This document shows positions 10,504 through 64,000 of a stretch of 64,000 nucleotides of DNA, in pieces. The stretch comes from Nanobdellota archaeon (lineage in GTDB: Archaea > Aenigmatarchaeota > Aenigmatarchaeia > QMZP01): positions 3,028-67,027 of the forward strand of contig JBDRJQ010000020.1 of NCBI GenBank assembly GCA_043814765.1. Direction: 5' to 3'. Positions within the stretch are counted from its first letter, which is position 1, and each line of letters opens with the position of its first letter. Made by a program: the position numbers and the translations under genes. The notes below the pieces were generated by a model that had not been told where the DNA came from, made no database searches, and saw only the letters and a program-made list of their open reading frames with translations.

Positions 10504-10608
10504 TGCGTCGACCGGGATTCGAACCCGGATCATTAGCTACCGTCTAAACCTTTTCTTAAAAAAAGGCTTATTGGAAGGCTAAGGTCCTAGCCGTTAGACT
10601 ATCGACGC
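10504..10608 (-). tRNA. tRNA-Gly(UCC) with 33-nt intron at 37/38
   Basis: Hand fold gives acceptor GCGTCGA/TCGACGC, D arm GTCT-AACGGCTA-GGAC, anticodon stem TTAGC/GCTAA, loop CTTCCA^A and T arm CCGGG-TTCGAAT-CCCGG. The intron maps to 10539..10571. Confidence 0.85.
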
Positions 10609-52897: not shown

Positions 52898-55513
52898 TCA
52901 ACGCCATTTTCTGCGCAATATTCTTTGATATCCTTTGCTTAGCTCTTCCCAGGACTTTTCATTTCCGCCCCTAATCGCAAGAACTACTGCTAATACCACT
53001 ATGCCAACTGCAATTACTATTAAAATCAAAACTATCAGCAAAGTATTTTCACCGAAAACTGGAGGCAAAGGAGGTTCTTCCATACAGTCAGTGTCCTGTC
53101 CGTCAACATATCCGTCACAGTCATCGTCAAGACTGTTGTAACAATTCTCAAATTCTGGGTTTACTTCACCCACGCATTCTGACCATCCTGTATACAAACA
53201 CTGTTTTGTTCCCTGCCTGCATATGCCAACACCAGCATTTTGCGAACCAACTCCACACGGTGCTGATTTTCCGATAGGGGAACAACATGAAAGATCATCA
53301 TCTGGTTCACCGTCACAGTTGTTATCCAAACCGTCACATATCTCTGCTGAAGGACCAATATCGCCAATACAATCACTCCACTCACCATCACTGCAGTATT
53401 TTGTTCCCTGTGAGCACGTTCCTGTTGATTTACCACAAGACAATTCAAGCTGGCTTAAATCATCTACTGCACCACTGCAGTCATTGTCAATGCCATCACA
53501 TTCCTCATCTTCACCTGGATTTATATCAGCATTATCATCATCGCAATCATCTATGTTTGCGTAGTAGTTATCACCATCTTCGTCTACCATAGTTGATGCT
53601 TCCTCAAATATATTGAGAGTAAAATTTGCACTTGCAAATATCTCATTAAACGCGTTGTCAAACGCCTTACAGTTCCAGATGTATGTTGCTTTGCCTAGAT
53701 TTGTCATGTTGAATGTAACGTTTGCACTGGTTTTATCAGAGAACTCTACACCGCTCGTTGATTTGAAAGTTCCTGATTCGTTCCAGAAAAAGTACATACT
53801 ATAAAGACCAGCATCTGCATTGGCTTCACATGTAAACTGCATGTTTCCGGGCAAAGAGATTTTGTTGTTACCAGGAGCATGAAGAGTTACAGATAAAATC
53901 TCTGTGTCACAGTCACCGTCATTTGCTGAAGTGCAGTCAGCTGGACAACAGCCATCACTAGTACCTATGCATTGGGTTATTGCTGGATAAGAGCACGTTT
54001 TTGGAGTGCCTGAACAAGTGTTTGTTGTGCACGCATTATTATCATTGCAGTCCGCATCACCGCTGCACTCATCTTCAGGACTGCAGTCCTGCGGGCAGTT
54101 GGAGTATGTCTCGCTTCCTTCGCATGTTCCGTCACCGCAAACAGTTCCAACCACTAAAACCTTGGTTTCAGTCTTGTCTATCAGTATGCCGTTAACATTG
54201 TAGGTAAGGAAAGTGGCTCTGTGTGGATTATAAGATACTCCAGCAGGTCCTCCCCAATTAGGATCATTAATGTATTTTTTTTCCACTGCTTCAAATTCAG
54301 CAGTTAATCCATTTGAGACAATTTGACCAGACCACACCAATTGGTTGAATTGATTGTTATTGTATAAATTAACTGTTGTTCCCTGCGGAAGCGGATTATC
54401 ATCTTTTGCTATATTAAGTTTGACAAACCAGCCTATTGATACGCTTGAATACAAACTAGTTCCAAACAAAATAGGTTCAGGATTAGTTGCATTCATAACT
54501 TCAGTGTCAGGCGCTCCACTCAGATATAGAACATTTCCATTACCTTGAGGACTCTTTATAATATTGCTTTCAAACCTGTTGTTTTTGGCCCCGCTTACAA
54601 CAACTGATCCACCTGTCTGGGAACCAGAATTTGTGATTGTGTTACCTGTTATATTGTTATTATCAGAATGCTGTCCTATACCTATTGCGTACGGAGCAGA
54701 ACCAGCTATAACATTAGAATATACACTAGTCCCTCCGCCTGCACCCATAAGTCTTATGCCTCTACTGTTTGCAGTTAATAAGTTGTTGTTTATAGCAATA
54801 CTTCCTACACGGAGATCCATTGCTATTTGGTTGTTTTTGAAAGTGTTATGTCTTATACCACCACTGTTTATTACAGTGTCTGTGTCAATAATTTCAAATT
54901 CAACTTTGTTTTCTGATAGAATACTTGTCGAATAGGTTACTTCTATTATATAAACATCAACAGGGCCTTTCGATCCAGTCAATGTGTACATATCACCCTC
55001 TGTTACAGATTTAAATTTTCCGTCGATTGTTATGCCAGCTACTGTATCACTTCCTATGTAGTTAACTGTGACATCATGCGTTACGCCGTTTACTGCAACC
55101 TGTTCAGTGTATCCTGAGTTTATTATCACTCTTTCATAAATATGGGAAGCGAGTATACCAACATCAAAACCATCTATTATGCAGTTTTCCAAAGTTAAAC
55201 CGTTATAACCGTTATTTACTATGAATTTCCCCTCATTACCAGGGATGCTATCATTGACAGGTTTTATTGTAGCTCCGTGACAGTTTATGGAAACATCATC
55301 TGCAGCTATTCTGTAGAAACCAATATCAGGAGCATTAATGTAACAAATAACATTATCTTTATTTTCTTGGTTAATGTTAACATCACTGGTTACATCCTTA
55401 TATCCATTAATAGGCGGACAATCAGCCTTTGATATTTGTGATGAAATATTAGGAAGCATTAATGCAAGAATTATAAAAAATGACACCAAAATCAGTACTT
55501 TATGGGTTTTCAT
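52898..55513 (-). CDS. large surface protein, paralogous architecture (beta-helix + Cys-rich repeats + C-terminal TM anchor)
   Basis: A signal peptide is followed by beta-helix repeats (NNQIAMD, NNNLLTANS, GNTITNSG, ESNIIKS). Further motifs are CGDGTCEGSETYSNCPQDC, DEDGDNYYANIDDCDDDNADINPGEDEECDGIDNDCSG and TM LLIVLILIVIAVGIVVLAVVLAI. Confidence 0.7.
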   Translation of the reverse strand: MKTHKVLILVSFFIILALMLPNISSQISKADCPPINGYKDVTSDVNINQENKDNVICYINAPDIGFYRIAADDVSINCHGATIKPVNDSIPGNEGKFIVNNGYNGLTLENCIIDGFDVGILASHIYERVIINSGYTEQVAVNGVTHDVTVNYIGSDTVAGITIDGKFKSVTEGDMYTLTGSKGPVDVYIIEVTYSTSILSENKVEFEIIDTDTVINSGGIRHNTFKNNQIAMDLRVGSIAINNNLLTANSRGIRLMGAGGGTSVYSNVIAGSAPYAIGIGQHSDNNNITGNTITNSGSQTGGSVVVSGAKNNRFESNIIKSPQGNGNVLYLSGAPDTEVMNATNPEPILFGTSLYSSVSIGWFVKLNIAKDDNPLPQGTTVNLYNNNQFNQLVWSGQIVSNGLTAEFEAVEKKYINDPNWGGPAGVSYNPHRATFLTYNVNGILIDKTETKVLVVGTVCGDGTCEGSETYSNCPQDCSPEDECSGDADCNDNNACTTNTCSGTPKTCSYPAITQCIGTSDGCCPADCTSANDGDCDTEILSVTLHAPGNNKISLPGNMQFTCEANADAGLYSMYFFWNESGTFKSTSGVEFSDKTSANVTFNMTNLGKATYIWNCKAFDNAFNEIFASANFTLNIFEEASTMVDEDGDNYYANIDDCDDDNADINPGEDEECDGIDNDCSGAVDDLSQLELSCGKSTGTCSQGTKYCSDGEWSDCIGDIGPSAEICDGLDNNCDGEPDDDLSCCSPIGKSAPCGVGSQNAGVGICRQGTKQCLYTGWSECVGEVNPEFENCYNSLDDDCDGYVDGQDTDCMEEPPLPPVFGENTLLIVLILIVIAVGIVVLAVVLAIRGGNEKSWEELSKGYQRILRRKWR

Positions 55514-57519: not shown

Positions 57520-58347
57520 ATGCTCTTCTGGAGAAGGTTCAAATCTAACGTTTCGTGCAGGTGGACAGAGGCATGGACATTCAAGGTTGATGTATTCCTG
57601 AATATAGTAAACACAGTTCTAGCTGTGTTCATGTGGTATTTCATGTCCATAATGATACATCCAGCTATACTAGGATATGTAAATGTCGGTTACCTGCCAT
57701 TCATTATGGTTGGTAGTGTTGCGCTCTTCTTTGCCAGCAGAGTAACAGCAAGCTTCTCAGGAAGTTTTTACAGAGATATAGAAAGCGGTATATTTAAATT
57801 GGTGTACTTATCCGATATGAATTTAATACATTATTTTTTCATGAACTTCTTTACAGGACTGATATTTGATTCTTTCTTGATATTGGTTCCAATGATATCA
57901 GCATACTTCTTTTTGATACAGATAGTGGCATACGAGACAACGACATTTTTCAGTATGGGTATTCTATTGACAATATTAGCGTCATTCGCAATATTTGTGG
58001 TTGGTCAGCTAGGATTCACCATGATGACTGTGGGATCCAAACTGTACCTTAAGAAAGGAGATCCTATAAGCTTTACCATAGAAAAGCTAAATCAATTCTT
58101 CTCCGGACAGGTATTTCCACTAAGGTTGCTTCCTGCATTTTTGGCATTCCTGCCTACGGTGTTGCCTGCTGCTTACGTGATTCTGATTTGGAGGGATTCT
58201 CTCTTCTTGGGCAAAACAATCTTTGACGGAACAATGACTAACATCATGATTGGAGGAATTGTAGTAAGCGCTGTTATATTTGCTGTAGGGTTGCTCTTCT
58301 TTTACAAAGGCATAGAGAGGGCCAAGGTGGAGGGAAGATGGCTGTAA
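57520..58347 (+). CDS. ABC-2 type transporter permease
   Basis: About six hydrophobic spans. A 10-nt overlap with the downstream ATPase gene. Confidence 0.55.
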   Translation: MLFWRRFKSNVSCRWTEAWTFKVDVFLNIVNTVLAVFMWYFMSIMIHPAILGYVNVGYLPFIMVGSVALFFASRVTASFSGSFYRDIESGIFKLVYLSDMNLIHYFFMNFFTGLIFDSFLILVPMISAYFFLIQIVAYETTTFFSMGILLTILASFAIFVVGQLGFTMMTVGSKLYLKKGDPISFTIEKLNQFFSGQVFPLRLLPAFLAFLPTVLPAAYVILIWRDSLFLGKTIFDGTMTNIMIGGIVVSAVIFAVGLLFFYKGIERAKVEGRWL

Positions 58348-59348
58348 AAAATGATATAGAAGTCAGAAACCTGAGAAAGAATTACTATGAGTACAAGGTT
58401 TTCAAAAAAGGAAAACTTCTGACAAGGGCACTGAAAGGAGTTTCGTTTAATGTAAAACGTGGTGACTTTATCGGACTTCTGGGGCTCAACGGCGCAGGCA
58501 AAACAACACTGATGAAGATACTTACAACCAATATGAGGGAGACCTCAGGCAAAGTGCTAGTTAACGGATTTGATGTGAACAGTGATCAGAGGAAGGTAAG
58601 GAAGAGCATATCTTGGATGTATGGTGTGGATTATTATGGTGTTGGGTGGGCATCTGTTCAGAAGAACCTAGAACTCGCTGCCAACATACTAGGATTAGAA
58701 AAGAAAAAATCAAAGCAAATCATAGACAGGACAATAAAAGAATTTGGCTTGCAGAAGTTTAGAAAGCTGGATGTATGGAGGCTCAGTACTGGTTTAAGAG
58801 CAAGATATTCGCTTGCTGTTGCCATGATGAAAAACCCAAAAATTCTTTTCCTTGATGAACCGCTGATAGGTCTTGACGTGGAGAGCAAGGATGCTGTAAG
58901 AAAAAAACTGAATGAACTGAACCAAAATGGATTGACAATATTGTACACATCACACCAGCTAAATGAAGTAGAAAAAGTCTGTAAAAAAATCATACTGATA
59001 AATGACGGAAAAATAGTTCATCAGGGATATACAGACGACCTGAAGAACAGGTACAGGAAAATAAATCTGTTAGAGATTCGCTGCAAGACAGAGGATCTGG
59101 TTGGCATCAGGAAATCCCTTCTCAGAGAAAAAAACATAATAAACGACATAGAGGTTCTAGGAAGCAGGGGAAACGAACATCAGCTCAAGATCTATACAAA
59201 TGTTGATTCAAGCGAAGCTCTGCTACCCATAGGCAAGCTCTTCAAAAACAAAAACGTTATCCTGCAGAGCCTTAATGTTGGAACAGTTGATCTTGAGACT
59301 GTCTTCAAGAAGGTTATAAAGAAGAAGTTATTTAAATCCTTTTATTAA
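58338..59348 (+). CDS. ABC transporter ATP-binding protein
   Basis: Walker A is GLNGAGKTT, the signature-like motif is LSTGLRARY and Walker B is LFLDEPL. Confidence 0.8.
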   Translation: MAVKNDIEVRNLRKNYYEYKVFKKGKLLTRALKGVSFNVKRGDFIGLLGLNGAGKTTLMKILTTNMRETSGKVLVNGFDVNSDQRKVRKSISWMYGVDYYGVGWASVQKNLELAANILGLEKKKSKQIIDRTIKEFGLQKFRKLDVWRLSTGLRARYSLAVAMMKNPKILFLDEPLIGLDVESKDAVRKKLNELNQNGLTILYTSHQLNEVEKVCKKIILINDGKIVHQGYTDDLKNRYRKINLLEIRCKTEDLVGIRKSLLREKNIINDIEVLGSRGNEHQLKIYTNVDSSEALLPIGKLFKNKNVILQSLNVGTVDLETVFKKVIKKKLFKSFY

Positions 59349-59378
59349 ACATTTAATATCAAAGTTTGAGGTGAATAA

Positions 59379-59507
59379 ATGCCTAAAGAGAAAGTTGTTA
59401 AAAAAAAGGTTTATGCAGAAAATGTTGAAGTCAAAAAACTAAAAGACGGCAATTTCCGGCTAATCGTTAAGGGTTTAAGAAAAAAAAATGACGGAGGTAA
59501 CAAATAA
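59379..59507 (+). CDS. small peptide P1 (42 aa) with shared leader-like motif
   Basis: Hand-translated as MPKEKVVKKKVYAENVEVKKLKDGNFRLIVKGLRKKNDGGNK. GAGGTGA lies 4 nt upstream of the ATG. It is not in the ORF track because it is under 60 aa. Confidence 0.45.
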   Translation: MPKEKVVKKKVYAENVEVKKLKDGNFRLIVKGLRKKNDGGNK

Positions 59508-59508
59508 T

Positions 59509-59730
59509 ATGAAAGATATACATTTTAAGATAAAAGCCTCTAACGTAAATGTTAAGAAACTAGAAAACGGTACCTTTAAAATAGTCTGTGACAACATAAA
59601 GGAGCTTGAAAAAACATCTGAAAAGAGTAAATGGAAAAGCTCATATGGTAAAAAGGAAATAACAATATATCGTGGAAATCATGTTTTCAAAAAAGACATG
59701 AAGACAAAAAATATAAAGAAAATAAGGTGA
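59509..59730 (+). CDS. small peptide P2 (73 aa) with shared leader-like motif
   Basis: MKDIHFKIKASNVNVKKLENGTFKIVCDN... GGAGGT lies 10 nt upstream of this ATG. The track start at 59488 is the alternative. Confidence 0.45.
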   Translation: MKDIHFKIKASNVNVKKLENGTFKIVCDNIKELEKTSEKSKWKSSYGKKEITIYRGNHVFKKDMKTKNIKKIR

Positions 59731-59734
59731 TAAA

Positions 59735-59899
59735 ATAGTAAATGAAGTTATTGATGTTAAAGCATCAAAGGTTGAAGTAAGGAAATTGAGAGATGGTGTA
59801 TTTGAAGTTATAATATACGGAGCAAAGGGTGATCTAGAATGCTGTATGGATTATGCTCCATGTGATGCTACAATACAAGTCAGTATACCTGCAAGATAA
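59735..59899 (+). CDS. candidate RiPP precursor P3: leader-like motif + Cys-rich core, apparent ATA start
   Basis: The frame reads (I)VNEVIDVKASKVEVRKLRDGVFEVIIYGAKGDLECCMDYAPCDATIQVSIPAR*. AGGTGA plus 4 nt precedes the ATA, mirroring the SD-ATG geometry of P1. No ATG, GTG or TTG lies upstream of the conserved motif. Confidence 0.45.
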   Translation: MVNEVIDVKASKVEVRKLRDGVFEVIIYGAKGDLECCMDYAPCDATIQVSIPAR

Positions 59900-59966
59900 T
59901 TGTATAATAATCAAGGGTGAGCCAGAATGCTGTATGGATTATGCTCCATGTGATGCTACAATACAA
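59837..59966 (+). repeat. tandem direct repeat of the core-encoding segment (two identical 42-nt copies, 59837..59878 and 59925..59966)
   Basis: GAATGCTGTATGGATTATGCTCCATGTGATGCTACAATACAA occurs twice. Similarity extends upstream (ATAATA...AAGGGTGA) with a 6-nt in-frame indel. Confidence 0.9.
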
Positions 59967-59984
59967 TTTGATTCAATGAGATAA
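59853..59984 (+). CDS. possible second core peptide P4 (…IIIKGEPECCMDYAPCDATIQFDSMR), no leader homology
   Basis: The only in-frame ATG (59853) lies inside the P3 core. This may be a non-functional partial duplicate. Confidence 0.25.
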   Translation: MLHVMLQYKSVYLQDNCIIIKGEPECCMDYAPCDATIQFDSMR

Positions 59985-60033
59985 ACAATCAGCTAAGATA
60001 GTGGAAATCCTCAATTAAACTTTATTATTTAAT

Positions 60034-61428
60034 GTGGTATTTATGATTAATCTATGTGAAACGATTATTGAATTCTCTGAAAAAGTATCGCCTAAATCTA
60101 AATATACATTTTCTAAATATCTAAATGTTATACCTTACAAATCTAATGTAATCTTGCTATCCGGAAGAACTGGTCGCATAATAGTTTGCACAAACAATGA
60201 ATGGAAACTTGTTAAAAAATATCTTAGATCGCCAAACAACAATGAAGATTTTTTTTATCCTTTCATTGAGACTGGAATGATTGTTAATAAAGAATTTGAT
60301 GAATTTGCTTATTTACTAAACAAAACAAACGAAAATAGGAAAGAATTAATAGAAAGAACCTATGATGGATCAAGAAGTGGTGGGATTTGGCTGACTCTTG
60401 GTAATTCATGTAATCTAAAATGTATTTATTGCTATCTGGAGAAAAACACCAGTTTAATGAGTTTTGAAACAATTAATGACGCCTTAGAGCAATTTCATGA
60501 TGGTTTTGTTAAAGGTAAACTTAAAAACGCACAGATTGCAATTGCTGGAGGAGAACCACTTTTATACAAGGATAGAGTAAAGCATATTTTTATCAAAAGT
60601 AAAATGCTGTTCAAAGAGGATTTTAATAAAGTTATTTTTTTCATAATAACCAATGGTACACTTATAGATGATGATTTGTTGAAATTCATAAAAACGAATA
60701 AGATAAATGTCCTGTTTCAAATAAGTATAGACGGTAATGAGGATATTCATAACAAAAGACGCATGTATGCAGATGGCAAAGGCACATATAATACAATTAT
60801 AAAAAATCTAAAAAGGGTAGCTGAATATGGAAACTTGATAATAATTAGAATACATGCCGACGAATCTAATTACTCGAAGATGGATAAGTTTTTTCATGAT
60901 ATTAAACCAATCCTCAATTCAAAAGTAACTGTTGACTTTATCGCACCAGTATGTGTTGATAAAGACGTTAAGTATGACAGTAAGCAATCATTTATAAAAT
61001 TTGATAAAATGGTAGAATCATTTAATAGTTTTGTTGATAGGAATAAATTAAAACTTTATAATGAAACAGAAACCGATTACAATCCGTTAAGTTCTACAAG
61101 TTATTTAGGACGTAATATATCCTTTTGTTCTGGTTTTGTCGGACAAAAATTTTGGCTAGATCCAAAAGGAAACTGGCTTGCATGTCCCATGGAAGAGTGG
61201 GTTATAGGCGATATAAAAAATGGCATTTCATATTCAAAAGTAAAAGAATTAAACAACATGGTAAAGGAAAACAACAAATGTTTGAGGTGTCCTAGATATT
61301 TTTTTTGCTCTAAACGTGTATGTCATAGAGTTATTTTAACTGGCATGGAAAAGCACACACCATTTATTAATAATAAAGATTTCAAATATATGGCAATAAA
61401 ATATGCAAAAAGTGCTGGTTTGGTATGA
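60034..61428 (+). CDS. radical SAM/SPASM peptide-modifying enzyme with PqqD/RRE-like N-terminal domain
   Basis: Contains GNSCNLKCIYCY (CX3CX2C), IAGGEPL, C-terminal FCSGF...ACPME...CLRCPRYFFCSKRVCH (SPASM-like CX2CX5CX4C) and N-terminal SNVILLSGRTGRIIVCTNNEWKLVKKYL. Confidence 0.75.
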   Translation: MVFMINLCETIIEFSEKVSPKSKYTFSKYLNVIPYKSNVILLSGRTGRIIVCTNNEWKLVKKYLRSPNNNEDFFYPFIETGMIVNKEFDEFAYLLNKTNENRKELIERTYDGSRSGGIWLTLGNSCNLKCIYCYLEKNTSLMSFETINDALEQFHDGFVKGKLKNAQIAIAGGEPLLYKDRVKHIFIKSKMLFKEDFNKVIFFIITNGTLIDDDLLKFIKTNKINVLFQISIDGNEDIHNKRRMYADGKGTYNTIIKNLKRVAEYGNLIIIRIHADESNYSKMDKFFHDIKPILNSKVTVDFIAPVCVDKDVKYDSKQSFIKFDKMVESFNSFVDRNKLKLYNETETDYNPLSSTSYLGRNISFCSGFVGQKFWLDPKGNWLACPMEEWVIGDIKNGISYSKVKELNNMVKENNKCLRCPRYFFCSKRVCHRVILTGMEKHTPFINNKDFKYMAIKYAKSAGLV

Positions 61429-63233
61429 AAAAAACAAAAAAAATATGTCTAGTTTCAATGCCCTTTAATAATGTTTTTTATCCCAATATACAATTAGCTA
61501 GCCTTAAGAGTTACATTAATCAGAACAGCCCAATAAACGTAGATCTTAAACACTTCAATCTTGATTTCTTCAATTTTATTTTAAGCTCCAAAGAAAAGAA
61601 AGAAACCATTCCATATTATAGTTTTTTTAATTCATATAGTAGAGATCTATACAATGGAGACATAGTCTTTGCATGTATGTATTATCCCAAGAAAATGAGT
61701 TCTATATTAGATGTAATATTCAACAAAAAAAACAAGACCACAAAACATAAGCACTGGAGAAAAGAACTTACAAGAAAAGAAACAATAAAAATTATCAACG
61801 ATTTTAAAAAATTCACTGAAGATTTAATAAAATCTGTAAACTGGAAGGATTATTTTTTAGTGGGATTCAGTTGCTCATTTGCTCAGCTATTTCCATCTAT
61901 TTACGCTGCAAAATTAATAAAAAAGGCAAATCCAGATATAAAAATAGTTTTTGGAGGCAATGTTGTTTTTGAAGAACAAGGAAAATACATCTTAAATGAA
62001 TTCAACGAAGTAGATTTTATAATTTCTGGTGAGGGTGAAAAACCCCTTTTAAAAATGATTAGTGATTTAACAAATAAAATAATCCCTGAAAGGTATATTG
62101 ATGGCAGCAAACAACTAGTTAAATTGGATAATTTACCACTACCAGACTATAATAAATTCTTTGAACAACATTCTCAACTAAAGATACCTTATTTGGTTTT
62201 AATGTTATATGCATCAAAAGGTTGTTTTTATAATAAATGTAGTTTTTGTAGCATGAATAAACAATACTCATCATACAGGATAAAGAATGTAAACAAAATG
62301 ATAGATGAAATTATTGAGTTAAAAAGAAAATATCCGAAAACTGTGAATTTTGCATTCACTGATAGCATGATACCAGAACCATACTTAATCAAATTTGCCA
62401 AAGAAATAATAAAAAGAAAAATAAAAATATCATTTTGGTTAGAACTAAAAGCAAATGCAAAAAAAGAGACAATAAAATTATTATCAAAGGCAGGCCTAAA
62501 AGGAGCGCAGATAGGAATAGAGTCATTTAATCAAAACATATTAGAGAGAATGAACAAAGGAACAACAGTAAAGCAAAACATTGAAACAATGAAAATTTTT
62601 GAAGAGCTTAACGTAAAGGTTAGTTCCAATATAATAACACGATTTTTGAACGTTGATAAAAAAGACATAATTAATACTTTTGAGGTACTAAAAAAATTAA
62701 AATACTATCATCCGCTAAGTGCCAGCATTTTAGATTATACTTACGGTTCAAAAGAACACGAAAAACTGGTAAAATCAGGTTCTTATATACTTGCAGATGA
62801 AGAATTGAACTACATAATATATGCAAATCTAGAAAAATACAATACCTTTCTTCCAATCATTCCTAAAAAACAAGATAATCTGAAAGAATGGAAAGCCGTA
62901 GAGAATTTTATCAACGAAGAAAGAAAAAAGAAAAGATTCATAAACAGCCTTCCAGGCATCTACTATAAAAAACACAAAAACAAGATAACAGTTTACGTCA
63001 ACTATAACAAAAAGCTTGTAGGAACAGATATCACTAAAAAAATAGACTTATTGATATTTAACTTTTGCGATTCATTCAAAAACATACAAGAAATACGTAA
63101 TTGTCTTTCTGGATATTCTAAAAAGGAGATAAGTGAGTCAATAGAGCGTTTATTGAAAAAAGAAATACTTATAGATATAGATGAAGATTATATGACACTG
63201 CCAGTGAAGTTTGACAAGTCTAAATGGAAATAA
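61425..63233 (+). CDS. radical SAM enzyme with cobalamin-binding-like N-domain (class B / RiPP-maturation C-methyltransferase-like)
   Basis: The N-terminus is ICLVSMPFNNVFYPNIQLASLKSYI, followed by IVFGGNVV and the cluster motif SKGCFYNKCSFCSMN. The start overlaps the upstream stop in an ATGA junction (4-nt overlap). Confidence 0.65.
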   Translation: MKKTKKICLVSMPFNNVFYPNIQLASLKSYINQNSPINVDLKHFNLDFFNFILSSKEKKETIPYYSFFNSYSRDLYNGDIVFACMYYPKKMSSILDVIFNKKNKTTKHKHWRKELTRKETIKIINDFKKFTEDLIKSVNWKDYFLVGFSCSFAQLFPSIYAAKLIKKANPDIKIVFGGNVVFEEQGKYILNEFNEVDFIISGEGEKPLLKMISDLTNKIIPERYIDGSKQLVKLDNLPLPDYNKFFEQHSQLKIPYLVLMLYASKGCFYNKCSFCSMNKQYSSYRIKNVNKMIDEIIELKRKYPKTVNFAFTDSMIPEPYLIKFAKEIIKRKIKISFWLELKANAKKETIKLLSKAGLKGAQIGIESFNQNILERMNKGTTVKQNIETMKIFEELNVKVSSNIITRFLNVDKKDIINTFEVLKKLKYYHPLSASILDYTYGSKEHEKLVKSGSYILADEELNYIIYANLEKYNTFLPIIPKKQDNLKEWKAVENFINEERKKKRFINSLPGIYYKKHKNKITVYVNYNKKLVGTDITKKIDLLIFNFCDSFKNIQEIRNCLSGYSKKEISESIERLLKKEILIDIDEDYMTLPVKFDKSKWK

Positions 63234-63236
63234 ATT

Positions 63237-64000
63237 ATGAAAATGTTAAAAATATGTCTGGTTTCCATGCCATTTCATACTGTTATCTATCCCGATGTTC
63301 AATTGTCAAATCTGAAGAGCTACATAAATTCTAAGAATAAAATTAATGCAGATTTAAAATATTTTAATTTGAATCTATTCTACTTTCTATCTAAAATTGG
63401 TTCAGAAAAAATGTACCTTAGGTGTCTTCATAATTATTATTCTCCAGATATGTGCTACGGTGATTTGTTTTATTCTTGTTTATATTACCCAGAAAAAAAG
63501 GATAATATAATAAACATAATTATGGATTCAAACGACAAATATTTCCACTCCCATAACTATCTAAGAAAACCATTTTCAAAAAAAGAAACGGTAAATTTTA
63601 TTAATGAATTAAAAAATGAGACTGACAAAATCATAAAGTCTGTGAATTGGAAAGATTATCTTATAGTTATACTTGGCTGTTCTTATGGACAGCTTTTCCC
63701 ATCACTTTATGCGGCAAAACTGATAAAGAAACTCAATCCATCAATTAAGATTTGTGTGTATGGTAATCTCATTTTCAAAGAATATGGAAACTACATATTA
63801 AACGAGTTTAGAGACATAGATTTTATTTTTTCAGGAGAAGACGAAAAAACGTTTTATAAATTAATTTATGATATAATTAACAACAGAAAACCTAATAAAA
63901 ACATAAACAATTTTAAGAATCATATTAAACTTGATCAACTACCTTTTACAGATTATAAGGACTTTTTTGAGAAATCTAATTTAATGGGTATTGAGCAGAA
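63237..64000 (+). CDS. second, paralogous radical SAM enzyme of the same type (N-terminal 254 aa only; continues beyond window)
   Basis: Hand-translated as MKMLKICLVSMPFHTVIYPDVQLSNLKSYI...SVNWKDYLIV...LYAAKLIKKLNPSIKICVYGN..., collinear with 61425..63233. It is absent from the ORF track because it is open-ended. Confidence 0.6.
   Translation, partial: MKMLKICLVSMPFHTVIYPDVQLSNLKSYINSKNKINADLKYFNLNLFYFLSKIGSEKMYLRCLHNYYSPDMCYGDLFYSCLYYPEKKDNIINIIMDSNDKYFHSHNYLRKPFSKKETVNFINELKNETDKIIKSVNWKDYLIVILGCSYGQLFPSLYAAKLIKKLNPSIKICVYGNLIFKEYGNYILNEFRDIDFIFSGEDEKTFYKLIYDIINNRKPNKNINNFKNHIKLDQLPFTDYKDFFEKSNLMGIEQ

Follow-up and report, generated by a model that had tools for sequence, protein, structure and literature searches.

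The present analysis concerns a 64,000-nt stretch of DNA (hereafter the window) from contig JBDRJQ010000020.1 of a metagenome-assembled genome labelled Nanoarchaeota archaeon, an uncultured member of the DPANN archaea (69.5-kb contig; overall guanine-plus-cytosine (GC) content, 37%), and in particular the interval 59379-59984, which lies directly upstream of a gene for a radical S-adenosylmethionine (SAM)/SPASM enzyme. Three short open reading frames (ORFs) in this interval, P1 to P3, had been proposed to share a leader-like motif followed by unrelated C-termini and to be a precursor family of peptides that are made ribosomally and modified post-translationally (RiPPs). The genes around them are all on the + strand and are tightly packed in an operon-like manner, with intergenic spacing near zero. 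The main features are as follows, scores in bits being those of a profile made from the three copies of the motif.

59379..59507, + strand: P1 (42 aa), with the motif at 59406-59474 and then a basic tail of 11 residues; 67.6 bits
59509..59730, + strand: P2 (73 aa), with the motif at 59527-59595 and then a Lys-rich tail of 46 residues; 78.8 bits
59735..59899, + strand: P3 (54-codon frame read from ATA), with the motif at 59753-59821 followed by the core DLECCMDYAPCDATIQVSIPAR; 58.1 bits
59825..59878, + strand: direct repeat copy 1 (54 nt, family D1), encoding KGDLECCMDYAPCDATIQ in the P3 frame
59913..59966, + strand: direct repeat copy 2, designated P4, 96% identical to copy 1 and encoding IIIKGEPECCMDYAPCDATIQFDSMR within the frame 59904-59984
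60043..61428, + strand: radical SAM/SPASM peptide maturase, CteB/PapB-like (461 aa from ATG; 464 aa from the GTG at 60034)
61425..63233, + strand: B12-binding radical SAM enzyme 1 (602 aa), TIGR03975-like, whose ATG overlaps the stop of the SPASM gene
63237..64000, + strand: B12-binding radical SAM enzyme 2, of which the N-terminal 254 codons are present, the open frame running off the window

P1, P2 and P3 share, over about 20 residues, the motif A-x-x-V-x-V-[KR]-K-L-x-[DN]-G-x-F-x-[ILV]-[IV] (for example, KIKASNVNVKKLENGTFKIV), and their alignment contains seven invariant columns (A, V, V, K, L, G and F). Pairwise BLASTP comparisons among the three gave E values of 8e-7, 3e-6 and 8e-6, and of the 2380 remaining six-frame segments in the window none exceeded 4.4 bits with the three-copy profile. 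The motif is real, far beyond chance, and occurs exactly three times in the window. The C-terminal parts of P1, P2 and P3 are unrelated to one another, so that both the shared peptides and the divergence following them were found as originally described. P1, P2 and P3 contain no, one and three cysteines, respectively. In the NCBI annotation, P1 and P2 are listed as hypothetical proteins. An AlphaFold (AF2) model of P2, built from only three sequences, was weak (mean predicted local distance difference test (pLDDT) score, 61.6); in it the motif lay within a long beta-hairpin (residues 5-17 and 23-35, with [DN]-G at the turn; pLDDT about 72-75). The model was poor elsewhere and had no significant structural neighbour in a Foldseek search. 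A 21-nt repeat, D3, shared by the P1 motif and the P2 tail was rejected as a chance match, being A-rich and not in frame.

We compared the three motif blocks (23 codons each) by Nei-Gojobori counting. Their nucleotide identity was only 52-57%; differences were most numerous at the third codon position (15-16), followed by the first and then the second (5); synonymous sites were saturated, with a proportion of synonymous differences (pS) of 0.81 versus 0.33-0.39 for nonsynonymous differences (pN); and at six of the seven invariant positions the copies use differing synonymous codons (for example, Leu by CTA, CTA and TTG, and Val by GTC, GTT and GTA). Because pS is saturated, pN is lower and the codons differ, P1 to P3 are old duplicates under protein-level selection and not a recent DNA repeat; that is, they are old paralogues whose shared N-terminal module is under protein-level constraint. 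It had been anticipated that the precursor interpretation would fail if the similarity were confined to this locus and explained by recent duplication of non-coding DNA. The similarity does appear to be confined to the locus, but the saturated pS and lower pN are not those of a recent duplication. The comparison of selection that had been proposed for homologues could be run on the three paralogues only, and all three pass.

Translation signals are present in front of each copy. P1 is preceded by the Shine-Dalgarno (SD) sequence GAGGTGA (59368-59374), 4 nt from its ATG; P2 by GGAGGT (59493-59498), 10 nt from its ATG; and P3 by the SD-like sequence AAGGTGA (59724-59730), 4 nt from an ATA (59735), the same spacing as in P1. 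Since SD-like sites are rare in the window (6 of the 53 large ORFs and 2.9% of random positions have one), three such sites in a row are meaningful. The P3 frame is open from 59726 to the stop at 59897-59899 and contains no ATG, GTG or TTG ahead of the motif; its sole canonical start codon, a TTG at 59786, falls midway through the motif. Read from the ATA, P3 has nine residues ahead of the motif Ala, as in P2. Because of this N-terminal length and the P1-like SD spacing, P3 is read as a gene starting at ATA, and on the same grounds an alternative start at the ATG at 59742, which is out of frame with P3 and would require a 1-nt indel, was ranked below the ATA at 59735. Loss of the P3 start through a frameshift in a poor assembly was also considered and found unlikely: when 10 other ORFs of the window were compared with Pfam, those with a domain match were essentially full length (for example, RtcB, 1-426/426) and none showed signs of being split, so a generally error-prone assembly is unlikely. 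The initial description of three consecutive small ORFs therefore holds for P1 and P2, and does not hold for P3 as a canonical ORF, since no canonical start precedes its motif.

The interval also contains a fourth element not listed originally, the 54-nt direct copy of the P3 core designated P4. It lies 88 nt downstream of core copy 1, hence out of frame with P3, and has no SD sequence, start codon or leader motif, the leader profile finding nothing in its frame. The 54-nt repeat, with its 96% identity, is a recent DNA event, either a duplication or a gene conversion. The block from P1 to P4 is bracketed by a 19-nt imperfect inverted repeat (16 of 19 positions complementary) at 59349-59367 and 60017-60035; by a rough estimate about 0.4 such pairs would be expected by chance in this AT-rich stretch, and the repeat is probably not meaningful.

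The SPASM enzyme encoded downstream of the peptide block contains both the CX3CX2C motif (C123, C127 and C130) and a C-terminal SPASM cysteine motif (C362, C381, C413, C416, C422 and C426), all in columns that are invariant or nearly so when 37 homologues are aligned with it, and is thus a radical SAM/SPASM RiPP maturase in the general sense. Its assignment to a particular family is less direct. The best NCBIfam match was PapB (NF047865; 1e-41), followed by CefB, the geopeptide maturase, CcpM and the SCIFF maturase, all far below the respective cut-offs (for example, 143.3 bits against a curated cut-off of 340 for PapB, and 80.1 bits against a curated cut-off of 425 for the SCIFF maturase, TIGR03974). 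Among 5.8 billion proteins, no relative with more than 31% identity was found beyond its own record, and none was found in viral contigs. An AF2 model on the homologue alignment (mean pLDDT, 78.6) had as its best fold matches in the PDB CteB (5WHY/5WGG, full length), then TigE, anSME, SuiB, ChlB and SkfB. CteB is also the closest solved structure by sequence (phmmer, 7.8e-20), with a match that begins only at residue 114 of the window protein. The modelled N-terminal domain (residues 21-107; pLDDT about 86-91) consists of strands at 21-50 followed by helices at 51-61, 68-76 and 87-107, and the SPASM family profile aligns across the N-terminal RiPP recognition element (RRE) region of CteB (residues 5-105). 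On the basis of the model and the profile alignment, this domain appears to be RRE-like. In CteB itself, the leader of CteA forms a beta-strand that binds the RRE between helix alpha3 and strand beta3 (PMC8326336).

B12-binding radical SAM enzyme 1, with a B12-binding domain (PF02310) and a radical SAM domain (PF04055), aligned with positions 1-606/606 of TIGR03975, a family of RiPP maturation radical SAM C-methyltransferases, at a score of 268 bits (cut-off, 281.85). It is one of at least three tandem paralogues that are 43-51% identical to one another: enzyme 2 is 49% identical to enzyme 1 and 43% identical to the third, P0124, which lies at the end of the source contig. The count of these paralogues, three, equals that of the leader-bearing peptides. 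The only closer relative of the B12 enzyme, P0125 (43% identity), is on a 2-kb contig without context, and more distant relatives occur in unrelated contexts. As a separate observation, enzyme 1 and every one of its relatives examined (P0124-P0137) contain GCxxNKCxFC, that is, CX4CX2C, in place of the canonical CX3CX2C.

Upstream of P1 are two genes assigned, one of them putatively, to an ATP-binding cassette (ABC) transporter.

57520..58347, + strand: putative ABC-2-type permease (275 aa), a hydrophobic ORF that overlaps the ATPase gene by 10 nt
58338..59348, + strand: ABC transporter ATP-binding protein (336 aa, DrrA-like; TIGR01188 drrA, 2.9e-62; PF00005, 5.4e-27)

The permease had no Pfam or NCBIfam match. 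We found that GC content was 37.7 +/- 1.2% (6.5-kb windows) over the first 57.5 kb and about 39% in the ABC genes (permease, 39%; ATPase, 38.6%), dropped to about 30% at about 59350, where P1 begins, and stayed at 26-31% through the peptide block and the SPASM and B12 genes. The small ORFs and the radical SAM genes are one compositional low-GC island, and the GC step at P1, together with the low GC throughout, indicates independently that the peptide genes and the enzymes form one unit. The island was probably acquired together, by horizontal transfer, and probably continues past the window.

Two further features of the window lie outside this locus. An 871-aa protein encoded at 52898-55513 (- strand), whose N-terminus is signal-like and which has a membrane anchor at its C-terminus and many Cys-rich C..DNDCDG repeats, is likely a surface protein of the DPANN cell. 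A tRNA of 105 nt at 10504-10608 (- strand), which was found by Rfam (56 bits) and unreported by ARAGORN, is probably an intron-containing archaeal tRNA.

Homologues of the motif were sought widely. In a full HMMER scan of 1.84 billion representative proteins, the leader profile matched only P1, P2 and two tandem-repeat proteins, the latter being rejected as chance matches. Patterns back-translated from the motif, together with tblastn, revealed none in 185,579 species genomes, JGI metagenomes or IMG/VR; the search of translated metagenomes that had been suggested earlier for extending the family, carried out here on the JGI metagenomes as a back-translated pattern scan plus tblastn, thus produced no homologue. 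For P3, a protein word search found no word-sharing relative, and the core pattern CCMDYxPCD, searched as degenerate DNA, was absent from the genomes and matched twice in metagenomes, both times antisense inside a phage portal-type gene and hence by chance. Nothing significant was found when P1 to P4 were compared with Pfam, NCBIfam and PDB sequences; specifically, they did not match the SCIFF precursor model (PF13165/TIGR03973) even at E<=10, and among the NHLP and Nif11 models no NCBIfam family matched at E<=0.01 and no Pfam family scored above threshold. The earlier statement that the motif is unlike NHLP, Nif11 and SCIFF leaders is therefore correct. As far as can be seen from the databases searched, the leader family is a singleton: the pattern of a conserved leader with varied cores holds among the three paralogues, and no homologous locus was found beyond them.

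The surroundings of distant relatives of the SPASM enzyme were also informative. All of them have a short Cys-rich ORF next to them, which encodes a peptide of 49 aa in L001, a SCIFF peptide in L005 and in L006, and a 33-aa peptide ending in CGCNCNC in L004. L001 (GCA_054042625.1), which carries the nearest non-self SPASM homologue, likewise has an ABC-2 permease, an ABC ATPase, a Cys-rich ORF (49 aa) and a 464-aa radical SAM/SPASM protein, with identities to their counterparts here of 25% for the permease, 33% for the ATPase and 31% for the SPASM enzyme. It differs in having a single precursor with another N-terminus, no B12-radical SAM genes and an M1 peptidase gene downstream. The Cys-rich ORF of L001 (5830-5979, + strand; MEFKILYQ...CECVGPENLCATKCSGWDVCICHIVR) lies directly upstream of the SPASM homologue, is not among the called genes of the record and likely encodes a RiPP precursor. 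The leader profile did not match the small upstream ORFs of L001, its sole match there (6.9 bits, E 1.4) being inside the radical SAM frame, and it gave nothing significant (all E>1) on the fetched loci L001-L006, L009 and L010.

Among characterised systems, the arrangement most resembles CteA-CteB of Clostridium thermocellum and PapA-PapB (freyrasin), in which one or more short precursor genes likewise lie directly upstream of a gene for a radical SAM/SPASM maturase with an N-terminal RRE (here RRE-like). The thioethers of ranthipeptides link Cys to Asp in freyrasin, to Thr in CteA or to Asn in NxxcA (PMC8326336), and the cysteines of the P3 core stand near Asp and Thr, the acceptors in freyrasin and CteA. 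The present locus differs from these systems in having three paralogous precursors with unrelated tails, B12-radical SAM methyltransferases and an archaeal host; its maturase is far under both family cut-offs and at most 31% identical to anything among the 5.8 billion proteins. In contrast to SCIFF peptides, which have six cysteines in about 45 residues, P3 has three. The NHLP/Nif11 multi-precursor systems of the proteusin/polytheonamide type also combine one conserved leader and differing cores with adjoining TIGR03975-type enzymes, which are present here as several paralogues. Here, however, the leader is only about 25-30 residues long and shows no similarity to those models, the methyltransferase falls just under the TIGR03975 cut-off, and the enzymes include a SPASM protein of the thioether type. 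According to PMC12144867, predictions of radical SAM-dependent RiPP clusters extend across archaea, with 221 biosynthetic gene clusters of all classes in Nanoarchaeota, and the archaeal RiPP products characterised are only a few lanthipeptides from Haloarchaea. The archaeal radical SAM clusters in that survey (antiSMASH ranthipeptide/sactipeptide, including DPANN) are predictions of the same kind as ours, and its available text gives no leader families.

Taking these data together, we consider the odds somewhat in favour of the interval being the precursor block of an orphan multi-precursor radical SAM RiPP cluster in a Nanoarchaeota (DPANN) genome, with P1 to P3 most likely precursors of modified peptides. 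In such a cluster, the shared N-terminal module of about 25-30 residues, predicted to form a beta-hairpin with a [DN]-G turn, would serve as the leader, and one of its strands would bind the RRE-like domain of the SPASM enzyme in the way that the leader of CteA binds CteB. In the P3 core (CC-M-D ... C-D-A-T), the SPASM enzyme would next link Cys by thioether bonds to Asp or Thr, acceptors also used in ranthipeptides, and the three or more B12-radical SAM enzymes would C-methylate cores. P1 and P2, the only candidate substrates for which no cysteine would be required, would be alternative substrates, most plausibly of the B12-dependent methyltransferases. Leader-RRE binding, the choice of modified residues, export and continued expression of P3 from ATA are our inferences. 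Of the original RiPP precursor assignment, the paralogous module, the varied tails and the radical SAM context are thus retained, and a family extending beyond the locus is not.

Several observations weigh against this interpretation. Because no homologue was found, it has neither comparative support nor covariation of the leader with the enzyme. The P1 and P2 tails contain no recognisable modification motif for these enzyme classes, and P1 and P2 could be other than substrates; P2, judging with low confidence from its model, may be a small protein of all-beta structure and not a peptide. P3 is at best a gene with an ATA start, weakly used or dead, and there is no NCBI protein record for any start variant of P3 or P4 tested. 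The best explanation of P4, non-functional in appearance, is a dead partial duplicate or a tract of gene conversion. In the SPASM enzyme, the usual seventh (last) cysteine of the SPASM motif is absent, and Pfam found no PqqD/RRE sequence match on the N-terminal 117 residues. B12 enzyme 2 has no protein record, though its neighbours have one, and may have been annotated as a pseudogene. No protease is visible at the locus, and membership of the ABC transporter in the cluster is uncertain because the GC content of its genes is like that of the rest of the genome and unlike that of the island. Even if the system was functional in the past, the defective start of P3 and the dead P4 point to a degree of decay, and with B12 gene 2 lacking a protein record the cluster as a whole may be decaying.

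The alternatives to be weighed overlap with the interpretation as a multi-precursor cluster and with one another. The one that survives best, although we regard it as unlikely, is that the role of precursor belongs or belonged to the Cys-bearing copy alone, that is, to P3 (and formerly P4). P1 and P2 would then be leader-derived paralogues that have lost their cores and that act, for example, as competitors for the RRE, as regulators, or as immunity or carrier proteins, or that are themselves decaying. The brevity of the P1 tail, just 11 residues, the absence of a Cys motif from P1 and P2, the prediction of P2 as all-beta over its whole length and the pairing of all distant SPASM relatives with Cys-rich peptides would fit this explanation. 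It is, however, P1 and P2 that have an intact ATG and a strong SD sequence and P3 that has the defective start; the motif is equally conserved in all three despite the saturated synonymous divergence; and the three B12-radical SAM enzymes need substrates, for which cysteine is not required.

Rather less probable, in our estimate, is that the cluster is a horizontally acquired, decaying remnant which makes no product, the conservation of the motif reflecting past selection. Such a remnant might be expected to show what is seen in the ATA at the SD-defined start of P3, the leaderless out-of-frame P4, the B12 gene 2 without a protein record, the missing seventh SPASM cysteine, the low-GC island distinct from the host genome and the singleton status of the locus in all databases searched. 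Yet the SPASM gene, B12 gene 1, P1 and P2 are intact ORFs, and the other window genes tested are full length, indicating that the assembly is not error-prone. ATA, moreover, can initiate translation, at low efficiency.

We consider it improbable that P1 to P3 are small basic beta-hairpin proteins with a non-RiPP role, such as nucleic-acid or surface binding, and that their radical SAM neighbourhood is incidental. The Lys-rich sequences, the hairpin prediction and the lack of a match to any known leader family are compatible with such proteins, but the genes share island, strand and near-zero spacing with the radical SAM genes, one copy bears a Cys/Asp/Thr core of the type these enzymes modify, and there is no fold or family match to any binding protein. 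Finally, a non-coding DNA repeat with spurious ORFs, to which the confinement of the family to the locus and the recent 54-nt repeat in the interval might point, can practically be set aside, since the blocks are only 52-57% identical in nucleotides with their differences concentrated at third positions and the amino acids conserved, and three frames are open, each with an SD site upstream and with no long antisense ORF.

If the multi-precursor interpretation is carried further, a new beta-hairpin leader might, in a DPANN archaeon with a reduced genome, feed three chemically unrelated cores to one RRE-bearing thioether synthase and three B12-radical SAM paralogues. This would make a compact combinatorial system that arrived as a low-GC island and whose target may be the host or competitors; we put this forward tentatively, as a minority possibility. 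For a split system, in which P1, almost pure leader, would activate the enzyme in trans on a leaderless core such as P4, we see only the faintest chance, because P4 has no translation signals.

A leader with variable cores beside an RRE-bearing enzyme is standard RiPP logic and already known. What is new here is the leader sequence, the strong divergence of the enzymes, and the joint occurrence of a CteB-like enzyme and three B12-radical SAM paralogues in a Nanoarchaeota genome. As a singleton that is partly defective, the family is of value as a single experimental lead and not as a general principle. If our interpretation is true, the locus would supply a radical SAM enzyme of the RRE type with a new short leader, and would add three divergent B12-radical SAM methyltransferases with defined candidate substrates; and if the peptides are made and modified, it would be among the very few RiPP pathways of DPANN archaea that are concrete and testable.

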